Below are positions 25,959 through 53,748 of a stretch of 64,000 nt of DNA, piece after piece. Made by a program: the position numbers and the translations under genes. Position 1 is the stretch's first letter, and each line of letters starts with the position of its first letter. This stretch comes from Gemmatimonadaceae bacterium (GTDB taxonomy: Bacteria > Gemmatimonadota > Gemmatimonadetes > Gemmatimonadales > Gemmatimonadaceae). Under the pieces are notes generated by a model. The model did not search any database, was not told the origin of the DNA, and was given only the letters and a program-made list of their open reading frames with translations. Location of the stretch: the NCBI GenBank assembly GCA_013361335.1, contig JABFYH010000003.1, forward strand, positions 4,217 to 68,216. The letters are read 5' to 3'.

Positions 25959-25969
25959 GGATGAACCGG

Positions 25970-28014: not shown

Positions 28015-28199
28015 TTGCCGGGCGGTGCGATGCAACAGAAACCTCGAGCGGAATCCTGGTACGTGAAGACGAGCGGAGGCGGCTCGGGTAAGGCCGGCGG
28101 CGCCAGCCTCGGCGAACGAGCACTCACCCTCCTGGCCGGCCGCCAGTGACACGAAGGGTAACGGCTACACGGTCGATCGGCTGCCGGTGGCTGGACGGT

Positions 28200-29844: not shown

Positions 29845-30239
29845 GTGTGAGCCTGTGTCATTCGGGTGTGGACGGCGCGCGGTCGGGCCGCCCTGCATTC
29901 GGAAGCTGTGCGCCGGGAAGGCCGGAGACAAGCGCGCGGATGTCGGCGCCGGGCCCCGCTCGTGTCGCAGTCCGCCACGCGCGCGAACCACGAGCGGCCA
30001 GCCGTCCCGGAGGGCGCGGCTGGTGCCTCGGCGCCGACGATTCCGCGAGGATCAATCCTCGTCTGCGCCCATCTGGCTCAGGCAATCAGAGGGCCAGTGA
30101 TGTAGATCACTAAACTCAAACACGGCAAAGACTTGCGGGCTATGGTCCAGGAGCGGCGGCAGGTCCCGTTGCGTCCACGCCACACCTCCGTAGCGTGGCC
30201 GCGACGAGCCGGCGCCACAGTCCGCGCGGGAAAGGCAGC

Positions 30240-32687: not shown

Positions 32688-33091
32688 ACGCCTCCTCCCA
32701 CCCTGGAAATAAGGTTTTCCCCTGACACTTGGTGAGTCACCGCCCTGGTGATCGCACCTCGGCACGCGGACTGAGGTCGGCGCGACCGTCGGACCTGCTC
32801 TCCGCCCCGTCCCACCCGACCGAGGGTGAAAAGCAGGCGGTGAACACGAGAACACCTCGGGCATTAAGCATACCGCTCGATCTTCGGCGGGCGGCCTACC
32901 CGCGGTCCCCCTTTCGAGGATCCGACATATCCACCCAAGTGCTTGCCGGACCAAACGTTAGACCCAAATACCACGGGTGCGACACGCACCAGCCCGCCAG
33001 CCTTTCGACCACTCCGCGGCCCCCCAGGGGTGTTGCACCGGATGAACACTTTGCCTAGAGGGCGCAACACCGCTCCACGAGGCCGTCAGCC

Positions 33092-36230: not shown

Positions 36231-36248
36231 TCGACCCGACGGTCGATG

Positions 36249-36288
36249 ACGAGGGGCCGGCTCGTCGCCGGCCCCTCGTTGCGTTCTG
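36249..36288 (+). terminator. Rho-independent terminator after the YqjD/E/K-like operon
   Basis: ACGAGGGGCCGG (36249-36260), loop CTCGTCG, CCGGCCCCTCGT (36268-36279), then TGCGTTCTG. It begins 19 nt after the stop at 36230. Confidence 0.65.
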
Positions 36289-36398
36289 CAACCGCTTCGC
36301 CAGCGGGTATAGTTCTTGAGTTCGCTGTTGGCGGTGAGGCTCCGGCGAGCCGTCATGAAGCGCGACTTCCTCTCGCGGGCAGAGACCTGCCAGGCCGC

Positions 36399-37469
36399 AT
36401 GCGACCAAAAGAGGTGATCTTCAGGATCGCAAAGCGAGTCGGGGCGTTCGCGCTCGTGCGGGACAGCGAGTGGCGGCGGCTGCGCCTGTTGATTCTGTGC
36501 TATCACGGCGTGTCGCTCCGCGACGAGCACGAGTGGAACGGAGAGCTGTACGTGACGCCGGCGCATCTGCGCGAGCGGCTCCGGCTGTTGCGCGACCGCG
36601 GCTACACCATCCTGCCGCTCGACGAAGCATGTCGGATGCTGCGCGAGGACCGGCTTCCGCCCAGAAGCGTGTCGATCACCTTCGACGATGCGACAGTGGA
36701 CTTCGAGCGGGCGGCGCTTCCCATCCTGCGCGAGTTTCGCGCGCCGACCACGCTCTACCTGACGTCATTCTACACGGAATTCAGGATTCCCGTGTTCGAT
36801 ACCGTCCTCTCCTACGTGCTCTGGAAGGGGCGGGGGAGCGGCGCCGAGGTCGGTGCGCTGTGCGGCAGCCCCGACCCGCTTCCCATCGCGACGGCGGCCG
36901 ATCGCGAGCGTGCGCATGCCAGGCTCCGCTGCCATGCGGCGACGTACTCGCTCGACGCGCTGGCCAAGGATGCGCTGGTGGCGCGGGTCGCCGCGTGCGT
37001 CGGCGTGGACTATGCCGAGATTCTCTCGAGCGAGATCCTCCAGCTCATGACGCCGGCCAGCGTGGCTGCGCTGCCGCATGATCTGGTGAACGTGCAGATG
37101 CACACGCACCGCCACCGCGCACCGCGCGAGCGTGTCCTCTTCCGTCGCGAGCTGACGGACAATGCCTGCCGGATCATCGAGATGCGGGGAGCGGACTCGC
37201 GGCTCACCCACTTCTGCTACCCGAACGGCGAGTATCGCGGCGACCTCCTGCGCTGGCTGAGCGAGTTCGGCGTGGAGTTCGCGACGACCTGCCTGCCCGG
37301 CATCGCGAGCACCCACGACCATCCGCTGCTGCTCCCCCGATTCGTCGACAACTGCCTGCAGTCGCCCACGACGTTCGAGGCCTGGGCGAGCGGCTTCGCC
37401 GCGCTGCTGCCGAAGAGCCGACAGTATCGGATCGACGACGACCTGTTGCGCGTGGGCGCGAGTGGCTGA
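36399..37469 (+). CDS. Polysaccharide deacetylase (NodB-fold), PEP-CTERM-locus type
   Basis: LCYHGVS, NodB motif 1 SITFDDATVDF, motif 2 HTHRH. ATG 36399 is chosen because the ORF-track start 36246 lies inside the upstream terminator. Confidence 0.8.
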   Translation: MRPKEVIFRIAKRVGAFALVRDSEWRRLRLLILCYHGVSLRDEHEWNGELYVTPAHLRERLRLLRDRGYTILPLDEACRMLREDRLPPRSVSITFDDATVDFERAALPILREFRAPTTLYLTSFYTEFRIPVFDTVLSYVLWKGRGSGAEVGALCGSPDPLPIATAADRERAHARLRCHAATYSLDALAKDALVARVAACVGVDYAEILSSEILQLMTPASVAALPHDLVNVQMHTHRHRAPRERVLFRRELTDNACRIIEMRGADSRLTHFCYPNGEYRGDLLRWLSEFGVEFATTCLPGIASTHDHPLLLPRFVDNCLQSPTTFEAWASGFAALLPKSRQYRIDDDLLRVGASG

Positions 37470-38181
37470 CGACGCGCTCCCGCCATCGTCGGGGGGCGCA
37501 CACAGCGAGCGCGCGTCGGCCGCGGCGGGCGAGACGATCGCGTGGGTCGGCCCCTTCGCCGTCTTCGCGCTCTGGCTCGCGCTCGACACGCGGCTTCCGC
37601 TCGCCAATCCGGCGAAGGAGGTCGCGCGCGATCTCGTGCTGCTTGCCGCGATCGTCGGATTTTCCTGGCGGATCCTCCCGCGGCGGATCTCGCACTGGCT
37701 GCCGAGCATCGCGCTGGGGCTCGCCGTGTTCGCACTCTGGGTCGCACCCGATCTGCTCGTCCCCGGATGGCGCCGCCACTGGCTCTTTCAGAACGGGATC
37801 ACCGGGCAGCTCACGACGTCGATCCCGCCGGCCGATCTGACGGCCTTCATGCTCGTGCTGCGGACGGCGCGAGCCGCGCTGCTGGTTCCGATCATCGAAG
37901 AGCTGTTCTGGCGCGGCTGGCTCCCGCGCTGGCTGCAGAACACGCGGTTCGAGCGCGTCCCCCTCGGGCAGTACTCGGCCTTCGCCTTCTGGGCGACGGC
38001 GGTGCTCTTCGCGCTCGAGCATGGGCCGTTCTGGGAGGTCGGCCTGCTGTGCGGCATCGTCTACAACTGGTGGATGCGCCGCACGCGATCGCTCGGCGAT
38101 CTCATGCTCGTGCATGCGGTGACGAATCTCGCGCTGTCACTCTTCGTGATCGCGACGGGCCGTTGGACCTTCTGGATGTGA
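37462..38181 (+). CDS. CPBP (CAAX protease/bacteriocin-processing) family intramembrane glutamic endopeptidase
   Basis: Motif 1 IIEELFWRGWLPRW, motif 2 LFALEHG, motif 3 LVHAVTNL, and 6-7 TM segments. The GTG start overlaps the deacetylase gene by 8 nt. Confidence 0.8.
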   Translation: MADDALPPSSGGAHSERASAAAGETIAWVGPFAVFALWLALDTRLPLANPAKEVARDLVLLAAIVGFSWRILPRRISHWLPSIALGLAVFALWVAPDLLVPGWRRHWLFQNGITGQLTTSIPPADLTAFMLVLRTARAALLVPIIEELFWRGWLPRWLQNTRFERVPLGQYSAFAFWATAVLFALEHGPFWEVGLLCGIVYNWWMRRTRSLGDLMLVHAVTNLALSLFVIATGRWTFWM

Positions 38182-38239: not shown

Positions 38240-39013
38240 CTAGCGCCGCGTCTTCCGTCGCCGCATGAGGGCGATCCCCGCGAGCCCGGTCGCGACGAGC
38301 GTCATCGTCATCGGTTCCGGCACCGTGGTCGTGGGCGGCACGACGGGTGGTGTCACCGGCGGGACCTCCGGGGGCGTGACCGGCGGGGTCGTCGGCGGGG
38401 TCGTCGGCGGCGTCGTCGGCGGGGTCGTCGGCGGCGTCGTCGGTGGCGTCGTCGGTGGCGTCGTCGGTGGCGTCGTTGGCGGCGTCGTTGGCGGCGTCGT
38501 TGGCGGCGTCGTCGGCGGCGTCGTTGGCGGCGTCGTTGGCGGCGTCGTTGGCGGCGTCGTTGGCGGCGTCGTTGGCGGCGTCGTTGGCGGCGTCGTCGGC
38601 GGCACCTCCGGAATCACCGTGGGTGGAGTGTCTCCACCGCCACCGTTGCCGTGATCCAGGTTGCTCGCCAGGATGCCCGCGCCGAGCAGGCCGAGCAGCG
38701 GAAACCAGGGCAGACCGCGGGAGGACGCCACCGGTGCGCGCTCGACGATCACCGTGCCGGGGCCCGCCTCCGTGAGGACGATATCCGACACGAGACGCTC
38801 GGGCGGCAGCAGCACCTCCCTCTTGGTGCCGGGCACCAGGACCGTCACCGGCGGCTTCGGCGGGGTCGGTACCTGCTCTTCCTTCTTCAGCGGAATGCTG
38901 ACGTCGCTCTTGGCCCGCTTCTCCGCGACCTTTTGCGCGCCCGCTGCTGGCCCCATGAGGCTGGCAAGCACGAGCGTGCATTCCAACGTCCGCCACGACG
39001 ACCGTCTCAGCAT
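38240..39013 (-). CDS. PEP-CTERM protein with an 18-unit Pro/Thr (PPTT) repeat stalk
   Basis: Signal peptide MLRRSSWRTLECTLVLASLMGPAAGA. An internal hydrophobic segment LPWFPLLGLLGAGILASNL, then G4, then the PPTT repeats, then the C-terminal VPEPMTMTLVATGLAGIALMRRRKTRR (PEP motif, TM, Arg cluster). Confidence 0.85.
   Translation of the reverse strand: MLRRSSWRTLECTLVLASLMGPAAGAQKVAEKRAKSDVSIPLKKEEQVPTPPKPPVTVLVPGTKREVLLPPERLVSDIVLTEAGPGTVIVERAPVASSRGLPWFPLLGLLGAGILASNLDHGNGGGGDTPPTVIPEVPPTTPPTTPPTTPPTTPPTTPPTTPPTTPPTTPPTTPPTTPPTTPPTTPPTTPPTTPPTTPPTTPPTTPPTTPPVTPPEVPPVTPPVVPPTTTVPEPMTMTLVATGLAGIALMRRRKTRR
38388..38603 (-). repeat. 18 tandem 12-bp units (GTCGTYGGNGGN on the plus strand) encoding the PPTT repeat
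   Basis: The units are in phase from 38388 to 38603. They fall into sub-blocks of identical units: GTCGTCGGTGGC x3, GTCGTTGGCGGC x3, then x6. Degenerate copies flank both ends. Confidence 0.95.
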
Positions 39014-39170
39014 TGCATCTCCCTGCTGCATCCACACTCGCGACACGCGCCGGAAGCATCCCGGTATCGTCGCACCTAGGGGCCCCTAGTGCTCAAAGCG
39101 TGCCACCAACGGATGAGCTCCCGAGGACACTCCCCATGGTCCTGCTCGCCAAAGGCACCGCGACATCGCA

Positions 39171-40744: not shown

Positions 40745-41696
40745 TCATCCCCTCCTCGACGCCGCTTGCGCCGACTCTCTCCAGGAAGATCTGGTGCAAC
40801 GAGGGCTGTACGAGCTCGAAGCGCTGGATCGCCGCGCCGGTCTCCACGACGCGCTGCAGGAGGCGCTGCGGATCGGCGCCCGGTGCGAGGTTGATCTCGT
40901 AGAAGCGGTTCTGGTCGTCGACGCGGGACACCAGCGTCCGGTCGGCCAGGATGTGCGCGATGGCCGGCCGCGACTCACCGCCCACGGCCAGGGCGATGAC
41001 GCGTCCTCCGTGCGCCGCCTTCACCGCGGTCACGGGCCCGTCGAGCACCTTGTCGCCGCGCGCGATGATGCACACCGCGTCGCACAGCCGCTCGGCGTTG
41101 TCCATCAGGTGGGTGCTGAAGATGACCGTCTTGCCGCGCGCCTTGAGGTCGACGACGGTGTCCTTGAGCGCCTGCGCGTTGATCGGATCGAGCCCCGAGA
41201 ACGGCTCATCGAGGATCACGAGATCGGGGTCGTGGAGCAGCGTGCCGATGAACTGGACCTTCTGCTGCATGCCGCGCGACAGCTCGTCGATCTTCGCGAG
41301 ACCCCAGTCCTTCTCCGGGGTGCGGAGCTGAAAGCGCTCGAGCCACTCCTCGATGCGCGCTTCCGCCAGCTTACCCGGCACGCCCTTGAGCTCCGCGAGA
41401 AAGCGGAGCACGCGTCGGACCTGCATCTTCTTGTAGAGGCCGCGCTCCTCGGGCAGATAGCCGATGCGGTCGGTGGCGCCGTTGGTGAGGTGCGGCTGCC
41501 CGAACAGCTCGATCGTCCCGCTGTCCGGGACGATGATGTTCAGGATCATGCGAATGGTGGTCGTCTTGCCGGCGCCGTTGGGGCCCAGGAGCCCGTAGAC
41601 GGCGCCGCGCGGCACCTGGAGCGAGAGGTCGCGCACCGCGACGTGCTCCGCGTACCGCTTGGCGACGTTCCGGATGTCGATCGCGAGGTCGGACAT
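40731..41696 (-). CDS. ABC transporter ATP-binding protein (NatA-like)
   Basis: Walker A LLGPNGAGKTTTIRM, signature LSRGMQQKVQF, Walker B LVILDEPFSGLD. The start is ATG 41696; the longer ORF-track N-terminus is Arg/Gly-rich shadow sequence. Confidence 0.85.
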   Translation of the reverse strand: MSDLAIDIRNVAKRYAEHVAVRDLSLQVPRGAVYGLLGPNGAGKTTTIRMILNIIVPDSGTIELFGQPHLTNGATDRIGYLPEERGLYKKMQVRRVLRFLAELKGVPGKLAEARIEEWLERFQLRTPEKDWGLAKIDELSRGMQQKVQFIGTLLHDPDLVILDEPFSGLDPINAQALKDTVVDLKARGKTVIFSTHLMDNAERLCDAVCIIARGDKVLDGPVTAVKAAHGGRVIALAVGGESRPAIAHILADRTLVSRVDDQNRFYEINLAPGADPQRLLQRVVETGAAIQRFELVQPSLHQIFLERVGASGVEEGMSGQG

Positions 41697-41819
41697 GGAT
41701 GCGGGTTGAGGGCTGCCCAATATACGACCGGGGCTCACTCCTGTTACGGCGTCGTCGCCGCCCTTGCTGACCGCGTCGCCCGGCCGCGAGATTCGCGGCG
41801 TGCCTGCACATCCGCATCC

Positions 41820-42623
41820 ATGAACGGTCGACCGGCGCACCGTCTCGCCGCGGCGGGGGTGGCCGTCGGGTCGCTGCTGTTGCTCGGGCTGCTGGTGCTC
41901 CCCGTGAGCGCGCTCGTGCTGCGCGGCGGTGCGGCCGGGTTCCGCCAGCTCGGCACCGACGCCGAGCTCCGCGCGTCGCTGCTCCTGACGGCATCTACCG
42001 CCACGCTGGCCACCCTCGTGGCGGTGGTGCTCGGTACGCCGATCGCCTGGCTCCTCGCGCGCGGGCGCATGCCCGCCGCCGCGCTGGTGGGCGCCCTGCT
42101 CGATCTGCCCCTGCTCATCCCGCATCCCGTGGCGGGGATCGCGCTGCTGCTCGCGTTCGGCCGCGCGAGTCCGTTGGGCGGCGCGCTCGACCGGGCGGGG
42201 ATCGCGCTCCTGGGGAGCCCGCTCGCCATCGGCCTGGCGATGCTGTTCGTGGCGGCCCCGCTGTACGTCAGCGCCGCGCGCGAGGCGATCGCTCGAGTGG
42301 ATGCGCGGTACGAGTCGGTGGCGCGCACGCTCGGCGATTCCGCGTGGCGCGCGGCCTGGCGCGTCACTCGCCCCCTGGCCGGCCGCGGCCTCGTCGCGGC
42401 GGCGGTCGTGATGTGGGCGCGCGCGGCGAGCGAGTTCGGCGCGATCGTGATCCTCACCTACAATCCCAAGGTCGCGAGCGTGTTGAGCTACGACCGCTTC
42501 AACGCCTTCGGGCTCGACGCCGCGCTTCCCGTGGCCGCGGTGCTCGTGCTGCTCGCCGTGATCCCGCTCCTGGTGCTTCGCTCGCTGCGGGTCCGCGCCG
42601 CGCTCGGCGAGCCGGCGCGATGA
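41820..42623 (+). CDS. ABC transporter permease, molybdate/tungstate/sulfate (ModB/WtpB-like) type
   Basis: Only the last 267 codons of the 737-aa ORF are plausible. They contain LLIPHPVAGIALLLAFGR, an EAA-like loop AAREAIARVDARYESVARTLG, and ASEFGAIVIL. Confidence 0.7.
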   Translation: MNGRPAHRLAAAGVAVGSLLLLGLLVLPVSALVLRGGAAGFRQLGTDAELRASLLLTASTATLATLVAVVLGTPIAWLLARGRMPAAALVGALLDLPLLIPHPVAGIALLLAFGRASPLGGALDRAGIALLGSPLAIGLAMLFVAAPLYVSAAREAIARVDARYESVARTLGDSAWRAAWRVTRPLAGRGLVAAAVVMWARAASEFGAIVILTYNPKVASVLSYDRFNAFGLDAALPVAAVLVLLAVIPLLVLRSLRVRAALGEPAR

Positions 42624-43669
42624 TCGAGGCGCGCGCGCTGGGGACGCAGGCTGGCGCCTTCGCGCTGTCCGGCGTCAGCTTCACCCTCCCGCGCGGCGCG
42701 TGGGGGATCGTGCTCGGACCCGCCGGGGCGGGGAAGACCACCCTTCTCGAGACGATCGCCGGCGTGCGCCCCGCGACCACCGGCCAGGTGCTGCTGCGCG
42801 ACGTGGACGTCACGCGCCTCGCGCCCGAGCAGCGCCGCCTGGGGATCGTGTATCAGCACGGCTATCTCTTTCCGCACCTCAGCGTCGAGGCGAACGTGCG
42901 CTACGGTGCGACCGACCGTGCGCACGCCGCGATGGTGAGCGAACGACTCGGCGTGACGCCGCTCTACGAGCGGACCGTCGGCAGCCTGAGCGGAGGGGAG
43001 CGGCAGGTCGTCGCGCTCGCGCGGGCGCTCGGCCCGCGGCCGGACATCCTCCTCCTGGACGAGCCCTTCGCGGCGCTCGATCCACGTCGTCGCACCCGGG
43101 TGCGACGCGAGCTGCACGCGATGCAGCGCGAGCTGGGCTTCACGGTGCTGCAGGTGACGCACGACTTCGGCGAGGCGGGCACCCTGGGCGATCTCGCGCT
43201 GCTCGTGGAGGAGGGGCGGTTGGTGCAGGCGGCGCCACCGGCGCAGCTCTTTCGTCGCCCCGCGACCGCGGCGATCGCCGAGTTCCTCGGCGCCGAGAAC
43301 GTCTATGCGGGCACGGCGGAGACGGTCGATCGTGGTGGGCAGTCGGGACCCGACACCGTGCGGTTCCAGACCGGCGGCCTGACGCTGATCGGGATCGGGA
43401 CGTACGACGGGGAGCGGCGGCACGCCGTCGTCCGGGGCGAGGACGTGGTGCTGGCACGGTCGCGGCCCGGTGCGAGCTCCGCGCGCAACGTGCTCGACGG
43501 CGTCGTCGTCGAGATCGCGCCGGAAGGTGCCCTCGCGCGGGTCACCGTCGACGTCGCCGGTGTACCGCTCGTCGCATGCCTCACCACGGCGTCGGTGGCC
43601 GAGCTCGGTTTGCGTCAGGGTGTGCCCGTGGTCGCGATGGTCAAGGCGACGGCGGTGCATCTCTGCTAG
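42620..43669 (+). CDS. ABC transporter ATP-binding protein with a TOBE-like C-terminal domain (ModC/WtpC-like)
   Basis: Walker A VLGPAGAGKTTLLE, signature LSGGERQVVALARAL, Walker B ILLLDEPFAALD. The C-terminal NVLDGVVVEI...VVAMVKATAVHL is TOBE-like. The ATG overlaps the permease stop (ATGA). Confidence 0.8.
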   Translation: MIEARALGTQAGAFALSGVSFTLPRGAWGIVLGPAGAGKTTLLETIAGVRPATTGQVLLRDVDVTRLAPEQRRLGIVYQHGYLFPHLSVEANVRYGATDRAHAAMVSERLGVTPLYERTVGSLSGGERQVVALARALGPRPDILLLDEPFAALDPRRRTRVRRELHAMQRELGFTVLQVTHDFGEAGTLGDLALLVEEGRLVQAAPPAQLFRRPATAAIAEFLGAENVYAGTAETVDRGGQSGPDTVRFQTGGLTLIGIGTYDGERRHAVVRGEDVVLARSRPGASSARNVLDGVVVEIAPEGALARVTVDVAGVPLVACLTTASVAELGLRQGVPVVAMVKATAVHLC

Positions 43670-43714
43670 AGCGGATCGCTCGGCGGTAGTTGCTCGCCCG
43701 TCGCGGCGGTCGTC

Positions 43715-45670
43715 ATGCGAGGTACGCCACCCTCCACCAGAACGCCGTTGTCCAGCCTTGCCGTTCCACCCGCTCGCCCGCCGGCCGTCGAGGTGCGCGA
43801 GCGCATCGCGCCCGCGTCGCCCCGGTGGGCGTGGCGCGAGCCGGAAAGCCGGCTGGTGCTGTTCGTGGTGCTCGCGATCTGCGTCGCGTGGCTGGGGCGC
43901 AACCTGGGGCGTGGCTGGATGCCGTTCGACGACGGCGCCCTCGCGCAGACCGCCGAGCGTCTGCTCCGGGGCGAGCTGCCCCACCGCGACTTCGACGACC
44001 CGTATACCGGCGGCCTCGCGTTTCTGAACGCAGGGGCCTTCCGGCTGTTCGGTCTGTCGCTCTGGTCCATGCGGCTCGCGCTGCTCGCCGCGTTCGTGGT
44101 ATGGGTGCCGGCGTTCTACTACGTCGCCTCGCGGCTCGTTCGGCCGCTGGCGGCGGGCGCGATCACCATTCTCGCGGTGGCCTGGTCGGTGCCGAACTAC
44201 ACGGCGGCGATGCCGTCGTGGTACAACCTCTTTCTCGCCACCTTCGGCGCCGCGGCGCTCCTGCGTCATCTGGAGGACGACCGCCGACGCTGGCTGGTCG
44301 CGGCGGGTGTCGCGGGGGGCCTGTCGTTTCTCGTGAAGGTCGTCGGCCTGTATTACGTGGCCGGCGTGCTGCTCTACCTCGTGTTCCGGGCGCACGATGA
44401 GGCGCGTGCCGCCGTTGGATCGAACGCGTCGCGCGGCACCGGCTACGCCGCGTTCGTGACGGCTGCGCTGGTCGCGTTCGTCGGCATGCTGGCGCTGCTC
44501 GTGCGCCGCCAGCTCGCGGCGGCGGAGCTCTCGCAGTTCGTCGTGCCCGGGGCAGCGATCGCCACGCTGCTCGCCTACAACGAATGGGCGCAGCCAGCCG
44601 GCGACAGCGGCGCGCGCTTCCGCCGGCTGTTCGGGCTCATCGCGCCATTCCTGGCCGGCGTGCTCCTGCCGGTGGTGGTGTTCCTCGTTCCCTACGTGCG
44701 CAGCGGGTCGGTCGGCGCGCTGGTCTACGGCGTGTTCGTGCTGCCGATGAAGCGGTTCGGCGTCGCGGTGTCGGCGGTGATCCCGCTCCTCGCGATGACT
44801 GCCGGCATTCCGTTGATCCTGCTCGCCTTCGTGGCGCGGACGCTCCAGGGGCGGGTGGCGTGGATCGCGGGTGCGACGGCTGCCGCGGCGCTCGCCCTCC
44901 TGCTGGTCGTGACCGGGCGGAGCGATCCGGCGTACCGCGGCGTGTGGTACGCTGTGCAGACGATGCTTCCCTGGTTGATCGTCGCCGGCGTGGTGGTCGT
45001 GGCTCGTCCGCGTCGGGCGGACGCCGAGGACCCGATGCTTCGCGCGCGGACAATGGTGCTGCTGTGCATCGCCGCGCTGTGCAACCTGATCCAGTATCCC
45101 TTCTTCGTCCCGAACTACTTCTGCTACGTGGCGCCGCTGGTGATCCTGGCCGCAGTGGCGCTCGGCCGCTACGTCCGGCCGCGAACGGTGATGATTCCGT
45201 GGGCGGTGCTCGTGTTCTTCGTGACGTTCGCCGCGCTGCGCGTCAACGACAGCACGCTCTACGCGATGGGGATCGCCTATCGGCCCTACCTGCGCACCAT
45301 GCCGCTTGGCGTCGAGCGCGGCGGCCTGGACGTCCCGGTCGTGCATGCCGAGGCCTATCGCACGCTCGTGCCGCTGCTGCGCGCGCACGCGCGCGGCGGG
45401 TATATATGGGCGTCGCCGGACTGTCCGGAGATCTACTTTCTCTCCGGTCTGCGCAATCCCGGCCGTTCGCTCTTCGACTTCTTCGACGACCCCGCCGGGC
45501 GGACGCAGCGAGTGCTCGACATGCTCGACACACACGGCGTGACGGTCATCGTGCTCAACGCGCGCCCCGCGTTCTCGCCCGCGCCCACGGAGGACCTCAT
45601 CGCCGCGCTCGAGTCGCGCTACCCGTACGCGAGGAACGTCGGACCATTCCACGTCCGGTGGCGCCCGTGA
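43715..45670 (+). CDS. Polytopic GT-C-like glycosyltransferase (PMT/ArnT-type), paralog 1
   Basis: 651 aa with at least 10 hydrophobic segments. The first-loop acidic motif is WMPFDDGAL...ELPHRDFDDPYTGG. A soluble C-terminal domain of about 130 aa follows (GYIWASPDCPEIYFLSGLRNPGRSLFDFFDD). The functional call is an inference. Confidence 0.6.
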   Translation: MRGTPPSTRTPLSSLAVPPARPPAVEVRERIAPASPRWAWREPESRLVLFVVLAICVAWLGRNLGRGWMPFDDGALAQTAERLLRGELPHRDFDDPYTGGLAFLNAGAFRLFGLSLWSMRLALLAAFVVWVPAFYYVASRLVRPLAAGAITILAVAWSVPNYTAAMPSWYNLFLATFGAAALLRHLEDDRRRWLVAAGVAGGLSFLVKVVGLYYVAGVLLYLVFRAHDEARAAVGSNASRGTGYAAFVTAALVAFVGMLALLVRRQLAAAELSQFVVPGAAIATLLAYNEWAQPAGDSGARFRRLFGLIAPFLAGVLLPVVVFLVPYVRSGSVGALVYGVFVLPMKRFGVAVSAVIPLLAMTAGIPLILLAFVARTLQGRVAWIAGATAAAALALLLVVTGRSDPAYRGVWYAVQTMLPWLIVAGVVVVARPRRADAEDPMLRARTMVLLCIAALCNLIQYPFFVPNYFCYVAPLVILAAVALGRYVRPRTVMIPWAVLVFFVTFAALRVNDSTLYAMGIAYRPYLRTMPLGVERGGLDVPVVHAEAYRTLVPLLRAHARGGYIWASPDCPEIYFLSGLRNPGRSLFDFFDDPAGRTQRVLDMLDTHGVTVIVLNARPAFSPAPTEDLIAALESRYPYARNVGPFHVRWRP

Positions 45671-47598
45671 GCCGGCAGCCGACCGTCGGCCGCGACACCT
45701 TCGCGCCGTATGCACCCGGCTCCGACGCTGCACACGTGGAAGACGGCGTGACCTCCCGAGCGCGCCGCGAGATCGACTGGCGCCTCCTCCTGCTGGGGGT
45801 CATGACGGTGAGCGCCGTCTACGTGGCCTGGCATCTGGGCCGCGGCTGGGTGGCACACGACGAGGGGACGCTGGGGCAGAGCGCCGAGCGGCTGCTGCAG
45901 GGCGAGCTCCCGCATCGCGACTTCGACGAGATCTACTCCGGCGGGCTCACGTACCTGAACGCCGCCGCCTTCCGGCTGCTCGGCACGACGCTGTTCAGCC
46001 TCCGCGTCGTGCTGTTCGCCGTGTTCCTCGCCTGGGTGCCGGCGGTCTTCTACGTGGCGTCGCGGCTCGTGCGCCCGGTGACCGCGGCGGCGATCACGCT
46101 GCTCTGCGTCGTGTGGAGCTTGCCCAACTATCCGGCGCCGCTCCCCTCCTGGTACAACCTGTTCCTGGCGACGTTCGGCGTCGCGGCGCTGTTCCGGTGG
46201 CTGGAGGACCGGCGTGTTCGCTGGCTCTTCGCGGCCGGTGTCGCGGGCGGGCTGTCGCTGACGGTGAAGGTGATCGGCCTCTACTATGTCGCGGGCGTCC
46301 TGCTCTTCCTGGTGCACCAGGAACAGGAGCAGTCGGGGCGCGTGCCCGGTACGACGGAACGCCGAGCCAGCGCCTACGGGCTGTTCACCACCGCGTCGCT
46401 CGTCGTCTTCGCGGCGGCGCTGGTGCTGCTCGTCCGCCGCCAGCTCTACCTGGCGGAGCTGATCCAGTTCGTGCTGCCGGGGGCGATCCTGGCCGCGCTG
46501 CTGATCCACGGTGAGTGGGTGCGGGGCGCCTTGCCGAGTCGTGCGAGGTTCGTCGAGCTGGGACGACTGCTCGTCCCGTTCCTGTCGGGCGTCGCTCTGC
46601 CGGTTGCGGTGTTTCTCGTGCCGTTCATCCGGTCCGGTGCGGTGGGCGCGCTCGTCAACGACGTCTTCCTGCTGTCGACGAAGCGCTTCGGCACCGCGGC
46701 GTATCGCATGCTGTCGCCGTGGTCGATGCTGGGCCTCGTGCCCTTCGCCGTGATGACCTGGTACGCGAGACGCGTGGCCGGCCGCCTGCGCTGGTGGCAT
46801 GTGGCGGCGCTCGCGGGGGCGCTCGCCGCGTATCTCGTCGCGGCCGGCTCCGTGCCGGTCCTCTATCGGATCGTGTGGTACGGGCTGCGCGCGCTGCTGC
46901 CGGTCCTCGTGCTGCTCGGTGGGCTCGCCCTCTCGCGGCCGCGGCCGGCGGACGCCGCCTCTCCGTTGCTGCGGGCGCAGACGATGCTGCTGCTCAGCGT
47001 GTCCGCGCTGTTCACCCTCGTGCAGTTTCCCTTCTCGGCGCCCATCTACTTCTGCTACGTGGCCCCGCTCGTCGTGCTCTGCACGGTGGCGTTGCTCCGC
47101 TACGCGCCGCCGATGGCGAGGGCGGTGCCGGCGCTCGGCGTCGGCTTCCTCACGGCGTTCGCCGTCTTCCGCGTGAACACCAGCCTCCTGTTCGGGATGG
47201 GCGTGCTCTTCGTGCCCTATCCGCCGACGGCGTCGATCGGCGTTCCGCGCGCGGGGCTTCGCATCCCCGACCACGAGGCCACGATGTACCACGTGGCGGT
47301 GACGATGCTGCAGCAGCACGCGCGGGGGGGATACACCTGGGCGTCGCCCGATTGCCCGGAAATTTATTTTCTTTCGGGCTTACGAAATCCTACCAGGTCT
47401 CTTTTCGACTTCTTCGACGACCCGACCGGCCGGACCCCGCGCATCCTCGCGGCGCTCACGCGGCACGACGTCACGGCGGTCGTGCTCAATCGCTTCCCGC
47501 AGTTCTCCCCGCACGTCGCCGACGACCTCGTGACGGCGATCGAAGAGCGGTATCCCTACGGTGCCGACGTCGGCAAATTCCAGGTTCGGTGGCGGTGA
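45667..47598 (+). CDS. Polytopic GT-C-like glycosyltransferase, paralog 2
   Basis: GTG 45667 overlaps the paralog 1 stop (GTGA); ATG 45802 is an alternative. It is about 65-70% identical by eye to paralog 1 (WVAHDEGTL, ELPHRDFDEIYSGG, PSWYNLFLATFG, GYTWASPDCPEIYFLSGLRNP). Confidence 0.6.
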   Translation: MSRQPTVGRDTFAPYAPGSDAAHVEDGVTSRARREIDWRLLLLGVMTVSAVYVAWHLGRGWVAHDEGTLGQSAERLLQGELPHRDFDEIYSGGLTYLNAAAFRLLGTTLFSLRVVLFAVFLAWVPAVFYVASRLVRPVTAAAITLLCVVWSLPNYPAPLPSWYNLFLATFGVAALFRWLEDRRVRWLFAAGVAGGLSLTVKVIGLYYVAGVLLFLVHQEQEQSGRVPGTTERRASAYGLFTTASLVVFAAALVLLVRRQLYLAELIQFVLPGAILAALLIHGEWVRGALPSRARFVELGRLLVPFLSGVALPVAVFLVPFIRSGAVGALVNDVFLLSTKRFGTAAYRMLSPWSMLGLVPFAVMTWYARRVAGRLRWWHVAALAGALAAYLVAAGSVPVLYRIVWYGLRALLPVLVLLGGLALSRPRPADAASPLLRAQTMLLLSVSALFTLVQFPFSAPIYFCYVAPLVVLCTVALLRYAPPMARAVPALGVGFLTAFAVFRVNTSLLFGMGVLFVPYPPTASIGVPRAGLRIPDHEATMYHVAVTMLQQHARGGYTWASPDCPEIYFLSGLRNPTRSLFDFFDDPTGRTPRILAALTRHDVTAVVLNRFPQFSPHVADDLVTAIEERYPYGADVGKFQVRWR

Positions 47599-48200
47599 TG
47601 AAGCCCTACGCACGCTTGATGGAGAACACCCTCGCCTACCGTGTCTGGCAGGCGCCCTTCGCCGAGCAGAAGCTGGCGCCGCTCTACGCGCACAACGACG
47701 TGGCGCGGGCGCGCCGTGTGCTCGACGTCGGGTGCGGGCCCGGCACGAACACGGCGCACTTCGCGCATGCCGATTACCTCGGCATCGACTTCAACCCGGC
47801 GTACATCGACAGCGCGCGGGAGCGGTATGGCCGCGAGTTCGTGGTCGCCGACGTGACGAAATACGAGGTGGCGCCGGATCAGCGGTTCGATCTCATCCTC
47901 GCCAACAGCCTCTTTCACCACATCGACACCGCCAGCACGCGGCGGATCCTGGCGCACCTCGCGACGCTGCTCTCCGACGACGGCCACGTGCACGTCTTCG
48001 ACCTCGTGCTCCCGGAAGGTCCGTCCGTCTCCCGCCTGCTCGCTCGCGCCGATCGGGGCGAGTTTCCCCGCCCGCTCGAGGAATGGCGCGCGCTCTTCAC
48101 CGCCGCCTTCGAGCCGGTGGTGTTCGAGCCGTATCCCCTCGGCGCCGCCGGCATGACGCTATGGAACATGATCTACTTCAAGGGACGCGCTCGCCGATGA
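47598..48200 (+). CDS. Class I SAM-dependent methyltransferase
   Basis: Motif I VLDVGCGPGTNT, followed by FDLILANSLFHH. The ATG shares one base with the upstream stop (TGATG). Confidence 0.8.
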   Translation: MKPYARLMENTLAYRVWQAPFAEQKLAPLYAHNDVARARRVLDVGCGPGTNTAHFAHADYLGIDFNPAYIDSARERYGREFVVADVTKYEVAPDQRFDLILANSLFHHIDTASTRRILAHLATLLSDDGHVHVFDLVLPEGPSVSRLLARADRGEFPRPLEEWRALFTAAFEPVVFEPYPLGAAGMTLWNMIYFKGRARR

Positions 48201-49213
48201 TCTCCGCTACCCGCCTGTCCGTCGCCATCCCGCTGCACAACGAGGAGGCCGGCGTCCCGGAGCTGCTGCGGCGGCTCGGGGCGGTGCTCGACTCCATTCC
48301 CGGCGGCCCACACGAAGTCGTGCTCGTCGACGACGGCAGCCGCGACCGGACGCTCGAGCTGGTCCAGGCCGCGGCACGGCGCGACCCTCGCCTGGTCGTC
48401 GTCGCCCTCTCGCGCAACTTCGGGCACCAGGCCGCGCTGAGCGCCGCGCTGGACTACGTCTCGGGCGACGTCGTGGTCGCGATGGACGGCGATCTGCAGG
48501 ACCGCCCCGAAGCCATCCCGACGCTCCTCGCCAAGCACCGGGAGGGGTTCGACGTCGTGTACGCGCAACGCGTGAAGCGGAAGGAGAGCTGGCCGCTCCG
48601 GCTCAGCTATTTCGTCTTCTACCGCCTGCTCGCCTCGCTCGCCGACACCAGGCTGCCGCTCGACTCGGGTGACTTCGCGCTGATGACGCGGCAGGTGGTG
48701 GACCAGATGCGCGCCGCGCCCGAGCACAACCGCTACCTGCGTGGCTTGCGGAGCTGGGTCGGCTTCCGGCAGGCCGGGGTGATCGTCGAGCGCGACGAGC
48801 GGTTCGCCGGCACCACCAACTACGGGCCGTTGAAGTTGATGAAGCTCGCGTCGGACGGGCTCTTCTCCTTCTCGATCGTGCCGCTCCGCGCGGCGGCGAT
48901 GCTGGGGCTCGTCGCGATCCTGCTCTCGGCGGCGTTCTCCGTCTATACGCTCTACGCGAAGCTCTTCCTCGACCGCACGCCGGCCGGCTTCACGTCGATC
49001 ATGCTGTTCATGTCCTTCCTGACCGGCGTACAGCTCTTCTTCCTCGGCATCATCGGCGAGTACATCGGACGGATCTATCAGGAGACCAAACGGCGACCGC
49101 TGTACGTGGTGGGATCGGTCGTGCGCCAGGGCGCGGGGATGCCGATCGAGACCCACCGCTTCGTCACCCCGCAGTACACGCCGGTCGTGCCGGCGCGCCG
49201 CACCGGGCCGTAG
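48197..49213 (+). CDS. Family 2 glycosyltransferase of the polyprenyl-phosphate sugar synthase type (GtrB/ArnC/Ppm1-like)
   Basis: LSVAIPLHNEEAGV, VVLVDDGSRDRT, VVAMDGDLQDRPE, plus two C-terminal TM helices (IVPLRAAAMLGLVAILL, FMSFLTGVQLFFLGIIGEYIGRIY). The ATG overlaps the upstream stop (ATGA). Confidence 0.8.
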   Translation: MISATRLSVAIPLHNEEAGVPELLRRLGAVLDSIPGGPHEVVLVDDGSRDRTLELVQAAARRDPRLVVVALSRNFGHQAALSAALDYVSGDVVVAMDGDLQDRPEAIPTLLAKHREGFDVVYAQRVKRKESWPLRLSYFVFYRLLASLADTRLPLDSGDFALMTRQVVDQMRAAPEHNRYLRGLRSWVGFRQAGVIVERDERFAGTTNYGPLKLMKLASDGLFSFSIVPLRAAAMLGLVAILLSAAFSVYTLYAKLFLDRTPAGFTSIMLFMSFLTGVQLFFLGIIGEYIGRIYQETKRRPLYVVGSVVRQGAGMPIETHRFVTPQYTPVVPARRTGP

Positions 49214-49218
49214 GGCGC

Positions 49219-49998
49219 GTGGACGCCGACTACGGCGCTCGCTACCGCGAGCTGTTCCAGCGCCACTGGTGGTGGCGCGCGCGCGAGCGCGTGATCCTCG
49301 ACGCCCTGTGTGCGCACCAGCCGGCCGCCGGTTGGCGCGACGTGCTCGACGTCGGGTGCGGCGATGGCCTCTTCTTCGACGAGCTAGCGCGGCTGCCGGG
49401 CGTCCGCTCGGTGGAGGGGGTGGAGCCGGCGGCGGATCTGGTGTCGCCCGACGGACCGCATCGCGGACGCATCCACGTCGCGCCCTTCGACGCCAGCTTC
49501 GAGCCGGGACGGCGATACTCGCTCATCGTGATGCTCGACGTCCTGGAGCACCTCCCCGATCCGGCCGCGTCGCTGCGCCACGCGTTGTCCCTGCTCGAGC
49601 CGGACGGCGTGTTCCTCGCCACCGTGCCGGCGTTCATGTCGCTGTGGACGCGGCACGACGACCTGAACCACCACTACACCCGCTACGACAAGGCGAGCTT
49701 CGCGCGGCTCGCCGCCGAGGCGGGGCTGCGCCTCGACGACGTCCGCTACTTCTTTCACTGGACGGCCGTCGGCAAGCTCGCCACGCGCCTGAAGGAGGCG
49801 CTCGTCCCCGGTGAGCCTGCGTCGCCTGCGCTGCCCCCCGCGCCGCTGAACCGCGCGCTCTATGCAGCGTCGCGGCTCGAGCAGAGACTGCTCGGCGAGG
49901 TGCCGGTGCCTTTCGGAAGCTCCCTCCTTGCCGTGGGAGGGCGTCGTCGTGCCGCCACCGATGATTCATTGAACGGATCCTCGACCGCGGCGCGCTGA
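49219..49998 (+). CDS. Class I SAM-dependent methyltransferase
   Basis: Motif I VLDVGCGDGLFF and MLDVLEHLPDP. The GTG start lies 6 nt after the GT2 stop. Confidence 0.75.
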   Translation: MDADYGARYRELFQRHWWWRARERVILDALCAHQPAAGWRDVLDVGCGDGLFFDELARLPGVRSVEGVEPAADLVSPDGPHRGRIHVAPFDASFEPGRRYSLIVMLDVLEHLPDPAASLRHALSLLEPDGVFLATVPAFMSLWTRHDDLNHHYTRYDKASFARLAAEAGLRLDDVRYFFHWTAVGKLATRLKEALVPGEPASPALPPAPLNRALYAASRLEQRLLGEVPVPFGSSLLAVGGRRRAATDDSLNGSSTAAR

Positions 49999-50072
49999 CC
50001 GCGCTTGCCGCGCGCCGCGCGCGCCGTCTAGGTTGCGAGTCGACGTCAACTCCACCCTCCCTGACCCGCCGC

Positions 50073-51329
50073 ATGTCCCGACTCGTCCTTCGTTCCGCGC
50101 TCGCCCTCGTCCTCGCCGCGGTGCCGGGCGCGATCGCCCAGGCGCCCGCGCAGCTCGCCGCGCGCTCCGACGTGCGCGCGGTGCTCGACGCCATCAGGTC
50201 CACCAACGAGTGGACTCTGCAGCAGCAGGTGGCGCTGTGCGAGATCCCCGCGCCGCCGTTCATGGAGACGGCGCGCGGCGTCGCCTACAAGGCGGCATTC
50301 GAGAAGATCGGTCTCGCCAACGTGCGGGTTGATGCCGTCGGCAACGTGATCGGCGAGCGGCCTGGCACCGGGAGCGGCCCGACGGTGGTCCTGGCAGGCC
50401 ACCTCGACACGGTGTTCCCCGAAGGCACCAACGTGCGGGTGAAGAATGAGCGCGGCCGCCTCACCGGACGCGGCATCGGCGACGACTGCCGAGGTCTCGC
50501 CGTCGTGCTGGCCACGGCGCGCGCGCTCCAGTCGTCGAAGATCCGGACGCCGGGCACGATCATCTTCGTCGGCAACGTCGGGGAGGAGGGGCCCGGCAAC
50601 CTGCGCGGTACGCGCCACCTGTTCGACAAGGAGCTGGCCGGGAAGATCGATTACTTCATCTCCGTGGACGGGATCGGCGACGGCATCACGAGCCGCGCGG
50701 TGGGAAGTCATCGCTATCGGGTCACGTACAAGGGACGCGGCGGCCACAGCTACGGCGCCTTCGGCAACCCGAACCCCGCGCACGCCCTCGGCCGCGCCAT
50801 CGCCGCCATCGCGGATCTGCAGGTGCCCACCTCGCCGAAGACGACCTTCAACGTCGGCATCGTGCGTGGCGGGACGTCGGTCAACTCGATCCCCTTCGAG
50901 GCGTCGATGGACGTCGACATGCGCTCCGAGTCAGCGACGTCGCTCGCCGCGCTCGACGCGCAGGTCCAGGACGCCATCCGCCGAGCGCTGGCGGCGGAGA
51001 ACGCGCGGTGGCCGAAGGCGACGGATCATCTCGTGGTCGCGATCGACACCGTCGGCATCCGGCCGGCCGGCACGCAGCCGGATTCCGCGCGGATCGTTCG
51101 CGTCGCGAGCGACGCCGCCCGGATCCTCGGCTGGAGCGCCGAGCTCTCGGCGTCGAGCACCGACGCCAACGTGCCGATCGGGATGGGGAAGCCCGGCATC
51201 ACGATCGACGGCGGCGGCTCGGGCGGCGGCGCCCATGGCCTCGACGAATGGTACGAGGACGGTCCGCGCGGCTGGCTCGGGCCTCAGTGGGCGACGCTGA
51301 TCGTGCTCTCGCTCGCGAGCAACCGGTGA
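50073..51329 (+). CDS. M20 family metallopeptidase, secreted
   Basis: Signal peptide MSRLVLRSALALVLAAVPGAIAQA and M20 blocks LAGHLDTVFPEG, GRGIGDDCRGLAV, VGNVGEEGPGNLRG. Confidence 0.8.
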   Translation: MSRLVLRSALALVLAAVPGAIAQAPAQLAARSDVRAVLDAIRSTNEWTLQQQVALCEIPAPPFMETARGVAYKAAFEKIGLANVRVDAVGNVIGERPGTGSGPTVVLAGHLDTVFPEGTNVRVKNERGRLTGRGIGDDCRGLAVVLATARALQSSKIRTPGTIIFVGNVGEEGPGNLRGTRHLFDKELAGKIDYFISVDGIGDGITSRAVGSHRYRVTYKGRGGHSYGAFGNPNPAHALGRAIAAIADLQVPTSPKTTFNVGIVRGGTSVNSIPFEASMDVDMRSESATSLAALDAQVQDAIRRALAAENARWPKATDHLVVAIDTVGIRPAGTQPDSARIVRVASDAARILGWSAELSASSTDANVPIGMGKPGITIDGGGSGGGAHGLDEWYEDGPRGWLGPQWATLIVLSLASNR

Positions 51330-51877: not shown

Positions 51878-52624
51878 ATGCGTCTGCTTCGCATAGCTCC
51901 GCTGCTCCTCGTCTGCTCGGTCACCGCAGGCGCGCAGGCACCCGGCAAGTTCCCTCCCGATTCGCTGGTCAACACGAAGGTCATCCCGCACAACACGCCG
52001 GTGCCACAGGTGCTCGGCCTGATGCGCAACATCTCGGGCGACCTCGGCGTGCGCTGCCAGTTCTGCCACGTCGGCCGAGAGGGACAACCGCTCGCGCAGT
52101 TCGACTTCACGAGCGACGACAAGCGCACCAAGCAGGTGGCGCGACAGATGATGCTCATGCTGCAGGAGATCAATCGCCGGCTCGACACCATTCCGGCGCG
52201 GCCCACGCCCGGACTCCAGGCGACCTGCGGTACCTGTCACCGCGGCCTGAGCCGACCGATGCCGCTCGCAACCGCGATGGTGGAGACGGCGACGGCCGCC
52301 GGCGCCGACTCGGCCGTCCGCGCGTATCGCGCCCTTCGCACACGCTACTACGGGCGCGACGCGTACGACTTCGGGGAGACGTCGCTCAATCAGGCGGCGT
52401 TCCGGCTCGCCCGCGCCGGCAAGTTCGACGAGGCATTGGCGCTGCTCAAGCTCAACGAGGAGCAGTTCCCCACCTCGTCGGGGCTGTACGTCTTCCGCGG
52501 CAACGTTGCGCTGATGCGCGGCGACACGACGGGAGCCGCCGCGGCATTCCACGAGGCCGTGCGGCGCGATTCCACCAACAACGAAGCGCGCGGGCGGCTG
52601 CGCGACATCGGGCAGCGACCCTAA
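51878..52624 (+). CDS. Dihaem c-type cytochrome (reaction-centre cytochrome c family-like N-terminus) with a TPR-like C-terminus
   Basis: GGAGG lies 9 nt upstream of the ATG. Signal peptide, then two CxxCH motifs (LGVRCQFCH, CGTCH). The C-terminus is helical and TPR-like. The subfamily call is from memory only. Confidence 0.7.
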   Translation: MRLLRIAPLLLVCSVTAGAQAPGKFPPDSLVNTKVIPHNTPVPQVLGLMRNISGDLGVRCQFCHVGREGQPLAQFDFTSDDKRTKQVARQMMLMLQEINRRLDTIPARPTPGLQATCGTCHRGLSRPMPLATAMVETATAAGADSAVRAYRALRTRYYGRDAYDFGETSLNQAAFRLARAGKFDEALALLKLNEEQFPTSSGLYVFRGNVALMRGDTTGAAAAFHEAVRRDSTNNEARGRLRDIGQRP

Positions 52625-53748
52625 GCTGCCCCGACGCTCGTGATCTGAGCGGGTGGTGCGAGGGCTGCGGCGGCCGCCCCGGCTGTCGCGTTCAGACGTG
52701 CGCGCAGGAAGGCGAGCACCTCGTTCTCGTGGTGGCGCAGCATCGGACCGGAGGCCTGGCGCTGCTGCCACTCGGGCTTGAGCTCGGGGGGCAGCACGTC
52801 ACCGTCGAGATACGCCGTGAGGAGCGCCGGATGGATGTAGTACTTCCGGCAGACGCTGCGCGTGTTGCCGAGCATGGCTGCCGTGCGATCCACGGCGACC
52901 TTGATGTTCTTCTCGGCTGCCTTCCTCGTCGGCGCGGGCCCGAGCTCGCGCAGCGCGGCCGCGGCGTGCATCGTCCCCGCCCAGGTCCGGAAATCCTTCG
53001 CCGTCACCTCGCGACCCGCAGCCTCGCGCAGATACGCGTTGACGTCCTCCGCCTGCACCACCTGCCGCTGCCCGGTGTCGTCGACGTACTGGAACAGCTC
53101 GTAGCCGGGCAGCTCGGCGCAGCGCTGCACGATGCGCGCGATGCGGCGGTCCGTCACCGAGACCGCGTGTGCCACCCCGCTCTTCCCGCGGAACTCGAAC
53201 CGCATCCGTGAGCCCTCGATCTGCACGTGCTTGCGGCGCAGCGTCGTGAGACCGTAGGACTTGTTCGCCTTCGCGTACTCCTGCGTGCCGACGCGAATCA
53301 GCGTGCGCTCGAGCAGCCACACGACCGTCGCCATCACCTTGTCGCGCGGGAGATCGGGGAGCGCGATGTCCGACTCGACGCGCTCACGCACCTTCCACAG
53401 CACGTCGCTCAGCGCGATCATGCGCTCGAACTTCGTGCCGTCGCGCTGATCGCGGAACGACTGATGGTAGCGGTACTGCTTGCGGCCGCGTAGATCGCGC
53501 GCCGTCACCTGGAGATGCCCGTCGGGGTCGGGGCAGATCCAGACGTCGGTCCATGCCGGCGGGATGACGAGCGACCGGAAGCGCCGCAGCATCGCGCGGT
53601 CGCGAATGACCTTCCCCTCTGGATCGGTATACGTGAAGCCTCGGCCATGCCGCTTGCGACGAATGCCGGGCATCGCATCCGTCACGTAGCGAAGCCCCAC
53701 CGCCTCGGCGGAGCTCACGTACTCGGCGACAGCGGGGTTGACCAACAC
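52621..53748 (-). CDS. DNA topoisomerase IB (bacterial, poxvirus-like)
   Basis: AVGLRYVTD, RGRKQYRYH, LERTLIRVG, and the catalytic-Tyr region SVCRKYYIHP. The start is GTG. The stop overlaps the convergent cytochrome stop by 4 nt. Confidence 0.85.
   Translation of the reverse strand: MLVNPAVAEYVSSAEAVGLRYVTDAMPGIRRKRHGRGFTYTDPEGKVIRDRAMLRRFRSLVIPPAWTDVWICPDPDGHLQVTARDLRGRKQYRYHQSFRDQRDGTKFERMIALSDVLWKVRERVESDIALPDLPRDKVMATVVWLLERTLIRVGTQEYAKANKSYGLTTLRRKHVQIEGSRMRFEFRGKSGVAHAVSVTDRRIARIVQRCAELPGYELFQYVDDTGQRQVVQAEDVNAYLREAAGREVTAKDFRTWAGTMHAAAALRELGPAPTRKAAEKNIKVAVDRTAAMLGNTRSVCRKYYIHPALLTAYLDGDVLPPELKPEWQQRQASGPMLRHHENEVLAFLRARLNATAGAAAAALAPPAQITSVGAA

Follow-up and report, generated by a model that had tools for sequence, protein, structure and literature searches.

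A conserved operon of GT-C-fold proteins, a GtrB-like glycosyltransferase and two methyltransferases is a candidate methylating periplasmic glycosylation system in Gemmatimonadaceae

What does a bacterium decorate, and with which sugar, when it encodes two large polytopic proteins, a polyprenyl-phosphate glycosyltransferase and two methyltransferases in one tight row of genes? The question is raised by positions 43715-49998 of a 64-kb stretch of a Gemmatimonadaceae genome (GenBank assembly GCA_013361335.1, contig JABFYH010000003.1, positions 4,217 to 68,216; hereafter the window, with a G+C content of ~69% throughout). A first-pass annotation had read this locus as a (methyl)glycosylation module, possibly dedicated to PEP-CTERM proteins, the cargo of exosortases. 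We propose with moderate confidence that the cassette is an uncharacterised methylating variant of three-component periplasmic glycosylation, as represented by the Gtr, Arn and Pgf systems, which would act by the steps set out below on a glycan or lipopolysaccharide (LPS) acceptor. The three-component scheme itself is established (PMC11127046, PMC12041528). The five genes are:

43715-45670, + strand: GT-C1, 651 amino acids (aa), predicted polytopic GT-C-fold glycosyltransferase
45667-47598, + strand: GT-C2, 643 aa, paralogue of GT-C1 (54% identical in the alignment), GTG start
47598-48200, + strand: MT1, 200 aa, class I S-adenosylmethionine (SAM)-dependent methyltransferase, ATG start
48197-49213, + strand: GT2, 338 aa, GtrB/ArnC-type polyprenyl-phosphate glycosyltransferase, ATG start
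49219-49998, + strand: MT2, 259 aa, class I SAM-dependent methyltransferase

These genes form one operon, as first proposed. The start and stop codons of neighbouring genes overlap exactly as the first-pass annotation had described (GT-C1/GT-C2 by GTGA at 45667-45670, GT-C2/MT1 by TGATG at 47596-47600 and MT1/GT2 by ATGA at 48197-48200), whereas the spacing before MT2, given there as 6 nt, measures 5 nt (49214-49218). The same gene order is kept across phyla, which places the grouping beyond chance. A promoter and terminator scan of 41500-50400 returned counts near those of shuffled sequence and hence no signal. Long antisense open reading frames (ORFs) at 38265-38654 (+), 42488-45733 (-) and 45619-47319 (-) are artefactual, owing to the high G+C content; the shadows include a 1081-aa ORF opposite GT-C1 and one with GGVV repeats opposite the PPTT-encoding part of an upstream PEP-CTERM gene, and such ORFs cluster even across loci.

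Sequence comparison clearly identifies the product of GT2 as a predicted polyprenyl-phosphate glycosyltransferase of the GtrB/ArnC type, closer to GtrB than to ArnC. It matches Synechocystis GtrB sll0501 (5ekp) at E = 1.5e-77 over residues 5-307 of 338, ArnC at E = 1e-47 and DPM synthase at E = 3.6e-16, and scores 108 bits against Pfam Glycos_transf_2. The DxD motif lies within DGDLQD (aa 97-102, 48485-48502), and two hydrophobic C-terminal transmembrane (TM) helices are seen in the translation. Among NCBIfam models the best match is PgfS (NF047588, 236 bits vs an equivalog cut-off of 500), with ArnC (NF007986) at 175 vs 529.

MT1 and MT2 are cytoplasmic class I SAM enzymes. MT1 matches Pfam Methyltransf_25 (65 bits), carries the SAM motif VLDVGCGPG (47718-47744) and has no signal peptide or TM segment; MT2 matches Methyltransf_23 (79 bits) with the motif VLDVGCGDG (49342-49368). 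The best 120 database matches of MT1 are 83-100% identical to it. No NCBIfam equivalog and no specific solved relative in the PDB was found for MT1, and the solved relatives of MT2 in the PDB are generic only. No substrate could be read from such matches: BioC, Tam, UbiG, CpaM and phospholipid N-methyltransferases, all generic class I enzymes, appear at similar weak scores in the PDB and NCBIfam.

The two polytopic proteins carry the acidic first-loop motifs reported for them in the first-pass annotation. In GT-C1, FDDGAL (aa 71-76, 43925-43942) lies directly past TM1 and is followed by ELPHRDFD (43973-43996); in GT-C2, HDEGTL (aa 64-69, 45856-45873) is likewise followed by ELPHRDFD (45904-45927). 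An alignment of 23 family members (A1) shows D72 to be invariant and followed by D or E, with a second invariant block at H90-R-D-F-D94, and every invariant residue is kept in GT-C2. The basic N-terminus and acidic loop 1 fit a predicted topology in which loop 1 is periplasmic. The catalytic acid of GT-C enzymes usually sits just past TM1, and we regard D72-D73 of GT-C1 as a putative catalytic Asp pair.

Family profiles place these proteins marginally. GT-C1 scores 28.3 bits against PMT_2 (PF13231; cut-off 26.1) and 22.7 bits against PMT, which equals that model's cut-off, while GT-C2 reaches 22.1 bits against PMT_2 and so falls under its threshold. PMT_2 is matched at E <= 0.01 by 21 of the 23 family members (best 4e-9), and the PMT and PMT_2 matches cover the first third of the protein; these profiles leave the family on the margin of PMT_2. 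No NCBIfam model matched GT-C1 or GT-C2. Sequence searches of the PDB with GT-C1 alone and with the A1 profile returned no relevant match, so fold comparison was the sole means of placing the family. The AlphaFold2 model of GT-C1 (predicted local distance difference test score, pLDDT, 82.5; predicted template-modelling score 0.84) gave 14 Foldseek matches in the PDB at E <= 0.001, and all 14 are GT-C enzymes (ArnT, AglB, STT3, AftA and PglB). ArnT (5f15) is the best of them at E = 4.4e-6 and AglB (3wak) also ranks high; EmbB and Pmt4 come after PglB. The template-modelling scores (TM-scores) are low, at 0.26-0.39. The model thus supports the GT-C identity first suggested for these proteins, and we take GT-C1 and GT-C2 to be divergent enzymes of the GT-C fold, structural class GT-C_A, with no close characterised relative. 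Their best database matches are 54-100% identical (54-88% excluding the identical self-match), the few labelled by organism being Gemmatimonadaceae or Gemmatimonadetes, and the family comprises 1,147 clusters (50% identity) at E <= 1e-30.

The rank of ArnT in this comparison raises the possibility that the cassette transfers a (methylated) sugar from its undecaprenyl-phosphate donor onto the phosphates of lipid A or the sugars of the core, in the manner of ArnT, FlmK, LgmB and RgtA-D. Like the Arn system, in which the GT2 ArnC and the GT-C ArnT (GT83) place L-Ara4N (4-amino-4-deoxy-L-arabinose) on lipid A, the operon combines an ArnC-related GT2 with proteins built of a polytopic domain and a C-terminal, predicted periplasmic alpha/beta domain. 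Relatives of the GT-Cs are publicly named 'ArnT family' or '4-amino-4-deoxy-L-arabinose transferase-like' as well as 'GT family 39', and some variant cassettes described below place an ArnB/WecE-type aminotransferase beside an ArnC-like GT2. However, the TM-scores to ArnT are only 0.32-0.37, no solved ArnT is matched at the sequence level even with the family profile, and GT2 stays far under the ArnC equivalog cut-off and is nearer to GtrB. Equivalents of ArnA, ArnB, ArnD and ArnE/F are absent from the window, and several paralogues, as one to three tandem copies plus dispersed ones, would be unusual among lipid A modifiers. An ArnT-type role therefore appears quite unlikely to us.

A different hint comes from the C-terminal part of the GT-Cs, a soluble alpha/beta domain of ~135 aa that is conserved across the family (45257-45670 in GT-C1, 47188-47598 in GT-C2). 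It contains the motif WASPDCPEIYFLSGLRNP at 45407-45460 in GT-C1, with the same motif at 47338-47391 in GT-C2, and follows the family pattern W-A-S-P-D-x-P-E-x-Y-F-L-x-G-x-x-N-P. Pfam has no model for this domain, and bacterial Pmt enzymes are not known to carry it. When it was modelled alone (pLDDT 81.7), the only Foldseek matches with a probability > 0.9 were to the C-terminal globular domain of archaeal AglB-S2, an oligosaccharyltransferase (3vu0), at a weak E = 2.5e-3 and a TM-score of ~0.45.

This resemblance is among the arguments for protein O-glycosylation, in which the GT-Cs would act like PMT, PgtC2 or PgfM1, attaching the (methyl)hexose to Ser/Thr within disordered, Thr/Pro-rich stretches of exported proteins, among them PEP-CTERM cargo such as the PPTT-repeat protein at 38240-39046. 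The Pfam PMT and PMT_2 matches and the rank of AglB, STT3 and PglB alongside ArnT for the whole of GT-C1 also favour it. The GT-Cs share with the PMT family (GT39; actinobacterial Ppm1/Pmt) the acidic pair in loop 1 and the presence of Pmt4 and Pmt1-Pmt2 in the Foldseek list. They depart from that family in their profile scores, GT-C2 falling short of the PMT_2 gathering threshold and GT-C1 just equalling that of PMT; in the Foldseek ranking, where ArnT and the oligosaccharyltransferases come ahead of PMT structures (E = 1.4e-2 or worse for the latter); and in having a donor synthase that resembles GtrB, not Ppm1. Streptococcal GtrB plus GT-C systems modify Ser/Thr-rich disordered regions (PMC12041528, PMC5856776), and the streptococcal Pgf operon resembles ours in combining one GT-A polyprenyl-phosphate glycosyltransferase, PgfS, with two GT-C genes; here, too, a Thr/Pro-rich surface protein is encoded nearby. 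However, GT2 misses the PgfS cut-off; PgfM1, PgfM2 and PgtC2 belong to the YfhO family (PMC12041528) and not, like the GT-Cs here, to a PMT_2-like one; and the Pgf operon has an epimerase where this one has methyltransferases. Structurally, the C-terminal domain is also matched only weakly. We consider protein O-glycosylation rather unlikely; the gene neighbourhoods described below also weigh against it.

Does the cassette hold together in other genomes? A genome scan gave 79 related loci, whose neighbourhoods were taken as 10-kb flanks; 52 of them, with at least 4 kb on both sides of the GT-C gene, make up a well-flanked subset. The loci span Gemmatimonadota, Acidobacteriota (Terriglobia and Vicinamibacterales), two Pirellulaceae, an Eisenbacteria metagenome-assembled genome (MAG) and a 'delta proteobacterium' MAG. 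According to tblastn and ORF clustering, the only widely conserved arrangement is GT-C-MT1-GT2-MT2 with one to three GT-C copies, an order found in Gemmatimonadota, Acidobacteriota and one Pirellulaceae genome. MT1 and GT2 both lie beside the GT-C in 22 of the well-flanked loci, and MT2 (at least 40% identity) does so in 17. In every one of the 32 loci that carry orthologues of both, MT1 and GT2 exceed the GT-C in conservation (median identities 66% and 64% vs 46%). The identity of MT1 in related cassettes ranges over 54-92%, and MT2, present in 21 of these 32 loci, is 46-82% identical (median 62%).

This asymmetry resembles the pattern of the Gtr systems (GtrA flippase, GtrB undecaprenyl-phosphate-glucose synthase and a serotype-specific GT-C; PMC11127046), in which the enzymes of donor synthesis are conserved and the GT-C diverges and gains copies, and in which a GtrB-family GT2 likewise stands beside acidic-loop-1 GT-Cs. 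Unlike Gtr, the present cassette has two SAM methyltransferases as constant members, and its GT-Cs are all homologous to one another and share a conserved C-terminal domain. The GT-C 'pair' of the first-pass annotation is present in this operon but is not a core feature, given the varying copy number. Three tandem GT-C copies occur at one locus (L004, 201-5425), and a third GT-C follows GT2 at another (L011, 10001-17271). Tandem GT-C pairs with no methyltransferase or GT2 nearby are seen at L056 and L066, and several genomes, e.g. JBDUCR and OZ252219, hold more than one locus. One contig labelled as an uncultured Streptomycetaceae MAG (L015) encodes a GT-C 66% identical to GT-C2 and is probably a mis-binned Gemmatimonadota contig.

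Conservation also bears on whether these genes are merely adjacent, with the methyltransferases and possibly GT2 serving unrelated pathways and the GT-Cs drawing on another donor. The generic family matches of the methyltransferases would allow this, as would the fact that MT1 and GT2 are missing from the vicinity of the GT-C in about half of the well-flanked loci. Against it stand the overlapping start and stop codons, a GT-C-MT1-GT2-MT2 order that persists from phylum to phylum with MT1 54-69% and GT2 57-67% identical, the absence of any other conserved neighbour, and the recurrence of methyltransferases in variant cassettes. Chance adjacency is already disfavoured and seems to us very improbable indeed.

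Two variants of the cassette are found at the following loci:

Terriglobia variant: L045, L048, L050, L054, L072 and L077, about 9900-17000 each
Aminotransferase variant: L070 and L073, 10000-15500, complete set; L024, L032 and L039, partial or rearranged

The Terriglobia variant comprises genes for a ParA-like protein, a GT-C, an MT1-like protein (on the opposite strand, and not detected in L050), glucose-1-phosphate cytidylyltransferase, CDP-glucose 4,6-dehydratase, a short-chain dehydrogenase/reductase, a methyltransferase and a GtrB-like GT2. The added cytidylyltransferase and dehydratase score 384 bits vs a cut-off of 300 and 496 vs 278, respectively; the reductase is a further addition, and the gene set as a whole implies a methylated 6-deoxyhexose as the predicted donor. 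The aminotransferase variant contains a GT-C, an ArnC-like GT2, a WecE-type dTDP-4-amino-4,6-dideoxyhexose aminotransferase (566 bits vs a cut-off of 375) and two methyltransferases, suggesting that its donor is an amino sugar methylated on N or O. Because both variants keep the GT-C, the GT2 and methyltransferases yet add other sugar-pathway genes, the donor sugar appears to be the element that differs between lineages and methylation the constant one.

How might such a system work? The GtrB-like GT2 would move a hexose, the probable sugar, from a nucleotide sugar onto polyprenyl (undecaprenyl) phosphate at the cytoplasmic face. MT1 and MT2 may methylate the sugar in the cytoplasm before export, either as the nucleotide sugar or once it is lipid-linked. 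An unlinked flippase, or alternatively one of the membrane proteins, would then carry the lipid-linked (methyl)sugar across the membrane, where the two GT-C paralogues, to judge from their fold and motif, could transfer it to periplasmic acceptors by means of the Asp pair past TM1 and may serve different sites or steps. That a polyprenyl-phosphate GT2 feeds the GT-Cs, with the methyltransferases part of the same unit, had been suggested before and agrees with the fold and sequence evidence and with the conservation of the cassette across phyla.

Regarding the flippase, the earlier statement that none of the GtrA type is apparent was borne out by a scan of the 64-kb window for small polytopic GtrA/SMR-like ORFs (85-230 aa), which found only an antisense artefact of the PPTT repeat. 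No linked flippase emerged from the 79 loci when ORFs of 95-190 aa were scanned; MATE- or Wzx-sized flippases, which lie outside both size ranges, were not looked for. Small polytopic ORFs lie within 7 kb in eight of the 79 loci and are mutually unrelated except for one similar pair (L070 and L078), and the large transporter clusters seen in the window and related loci are of the ABC and MFS types only. On these small-ORF scans, the cassette differs from Gtr also in having no linked GtrA, SMR or MATE gene.

As for the acceptor, we lean by analogy towards a cell-surface glycoconjugate (LPS/O-antigen or exopolysaccharide), because there is precedent in diderm bacteria (PMC11127046) and because the GT-Cs have diversified and duplicated. 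Several observations weigh against our interpretation as a whole. Our leaning towards a glycan or LPS acceptor is drawn from that precedent and that diversification pattern, while both the PMT-family Pfam matches and the resemblance of the C-terminal domain to AglB point weakly to peptide acceptors. MT1 and MT2 have no specific family and may act on a substrate other than a sugar, and the small-ORF scans found no linked gene for the flippase that the scheme calls for, either in the window or in the 79 related loci. Finally, the GT-C stands without MT1 and GT2 close by in about half of the well-flanked loci, and therefore some GT-C paralogues may work at a distance or with other donors.

Could the acceptor instead be a PEP-CTERM protein, as first suggested? 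The surroundings of the operon in the window are:

24789-26009: GT1 glycosyltransferase
27193-28152, - strand: ABC-2 permease
28200-28898, - strand: EpsI/DUF3485 protein
28891-29991, - strand: exosortase (Exosortase_EpsH, E = 1.4e-57)
30277-31881, - strand: 534-aa protein with three Big_2 domains, beside the second PEP-CTERM protein
32049-32954, - strand: second PEP-CTERM protein (24.9 bits)
36246-37469, + strand: polysaccharide deacetylase, adjoining the PPTT gene region
37462-38181, + strand: CPBP/Rce1-like intramembrane protease, directly beside the PPTT gene
38240-39046, - strand: PPTT-repeat PEP-CTERM protein (tail 22.1 bits vs a cut-off of 20.7)
41859-43669, + strand: ModB/ModC-like importer, directly upstream of the operon
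downstream of the operon: M20 peptidase
51878-52624, + strand: cytochrome c (CytoC_RC-like) fused to TPR repeats, unrelated to the operon
52621-53748, - strand: bacterial type IB topoisomerase, unrelated to the operon

The upstream PEP-CTERM protein with PPTT repeats noted in the first-pass annotation is real: its tail passes the model's cut-off, and in its gene a 12-bp unit that encodes PPTT is repeated 18.6 times. The region 27193-29991, with the nearby GT1 gene, looks like an exosortase/exopolysaccharide locus ~14 kb upstream of the operon, and the CPBP protease could be tied to processing of the PPTT protein. The presence in one window of an exosortase, EpsI (28200-29991) and two PEP-CTERM proteins keeps the idea alive and speaks for protein O-glycosylation, as does the richness of PEP-CTERM proteins in Thr, Ser and Asn (Haft et al., PMC1569441). 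However, the PPTT gene lies on the opposite strand from the operon and two unrelated transporter units away, an ABC-2 exporter and the ModBC-like importer. The latter was itself considered as a part of the system and rejected, its linkage being confined to close Gemmatimonadaceae relatives.

The related loci likewise offer no support. None of the 79 encodes, within 10 kb, any homologue of the exosortase, EpsI, the PEP-CTERM proteins, the CPBP protease or the deacetylase that the window contains. A PEP-CTERM-like ORF, unrelated to those of the window, occurs in only one (L007), and a Thr/Pro-repeat gene in none; in the nearest relatives the contigs stop short of where the PPTT gene would lie. 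When the ORFs of all 79 loci were clustered against one another and examined for acceptor genes, GT-C, GT2, MT1 and MT2 were the only widely conserved real genes recovered, the remaining large clusters being their antisense shadows; in streptococci, by contrast, adhesin genes lie inside the pgf cluster. Gene context thus lends no support to a module dedicated to PEP-CTERM or exosortase cargo, but does not refute one. We regard as distinctly improbable the most specific form of the protein hypothesis, in which the cassette would be a diderm soil-bacterial O-glycosylation system for mucin-like, Thr/Pro-rich segments of exported proteins, exosortase cargo such as the PPTT-repeat protein included, supplied with methylated sugars on a lipid carrier and reading the peptide through an oligosaccharyltransferase-like C-terminal domain.

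Our preferred interpretation remains the methylating three-component variant with a glycan or LPS acceptor. Public databases already annotate its parts, in generic terms, and the scheme as a whole is familiar; no new mechanism is demonstrated here. Searches of the literature for a GT-C/GtrB/methyltransferase system, or for GT39 enzymes from these phyla, turned up no description. Nor did the literature searched report the features that set this cassette apart: two methyltransferases as constant partners, no linked flippase and a separate GT-C subfamily. Gemmatimonadota and Acidobacteriota abound in soils, and their envelopes have hardly been studied; methylated sugars are hydrophobic and resistant to degradation. 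In these organisms, the cassette and its GT-C family of ~1,150 clusters point to widespread surface decoration with methylated sugars, carried out by fast-evolving predicted periplasmic transferases that are coupled to a lipid-carrier sugar synthase and two methyltransferases. The operon also provides a concrete gene set for asking whether PEP-CTERM or other Thr/Pro-rich proteins carry glycans. Once donor and acceptor are defined, the system would represent a methylating branch of the three-component scheme and would raise the question of how its donor is flipped without a linked flippase.

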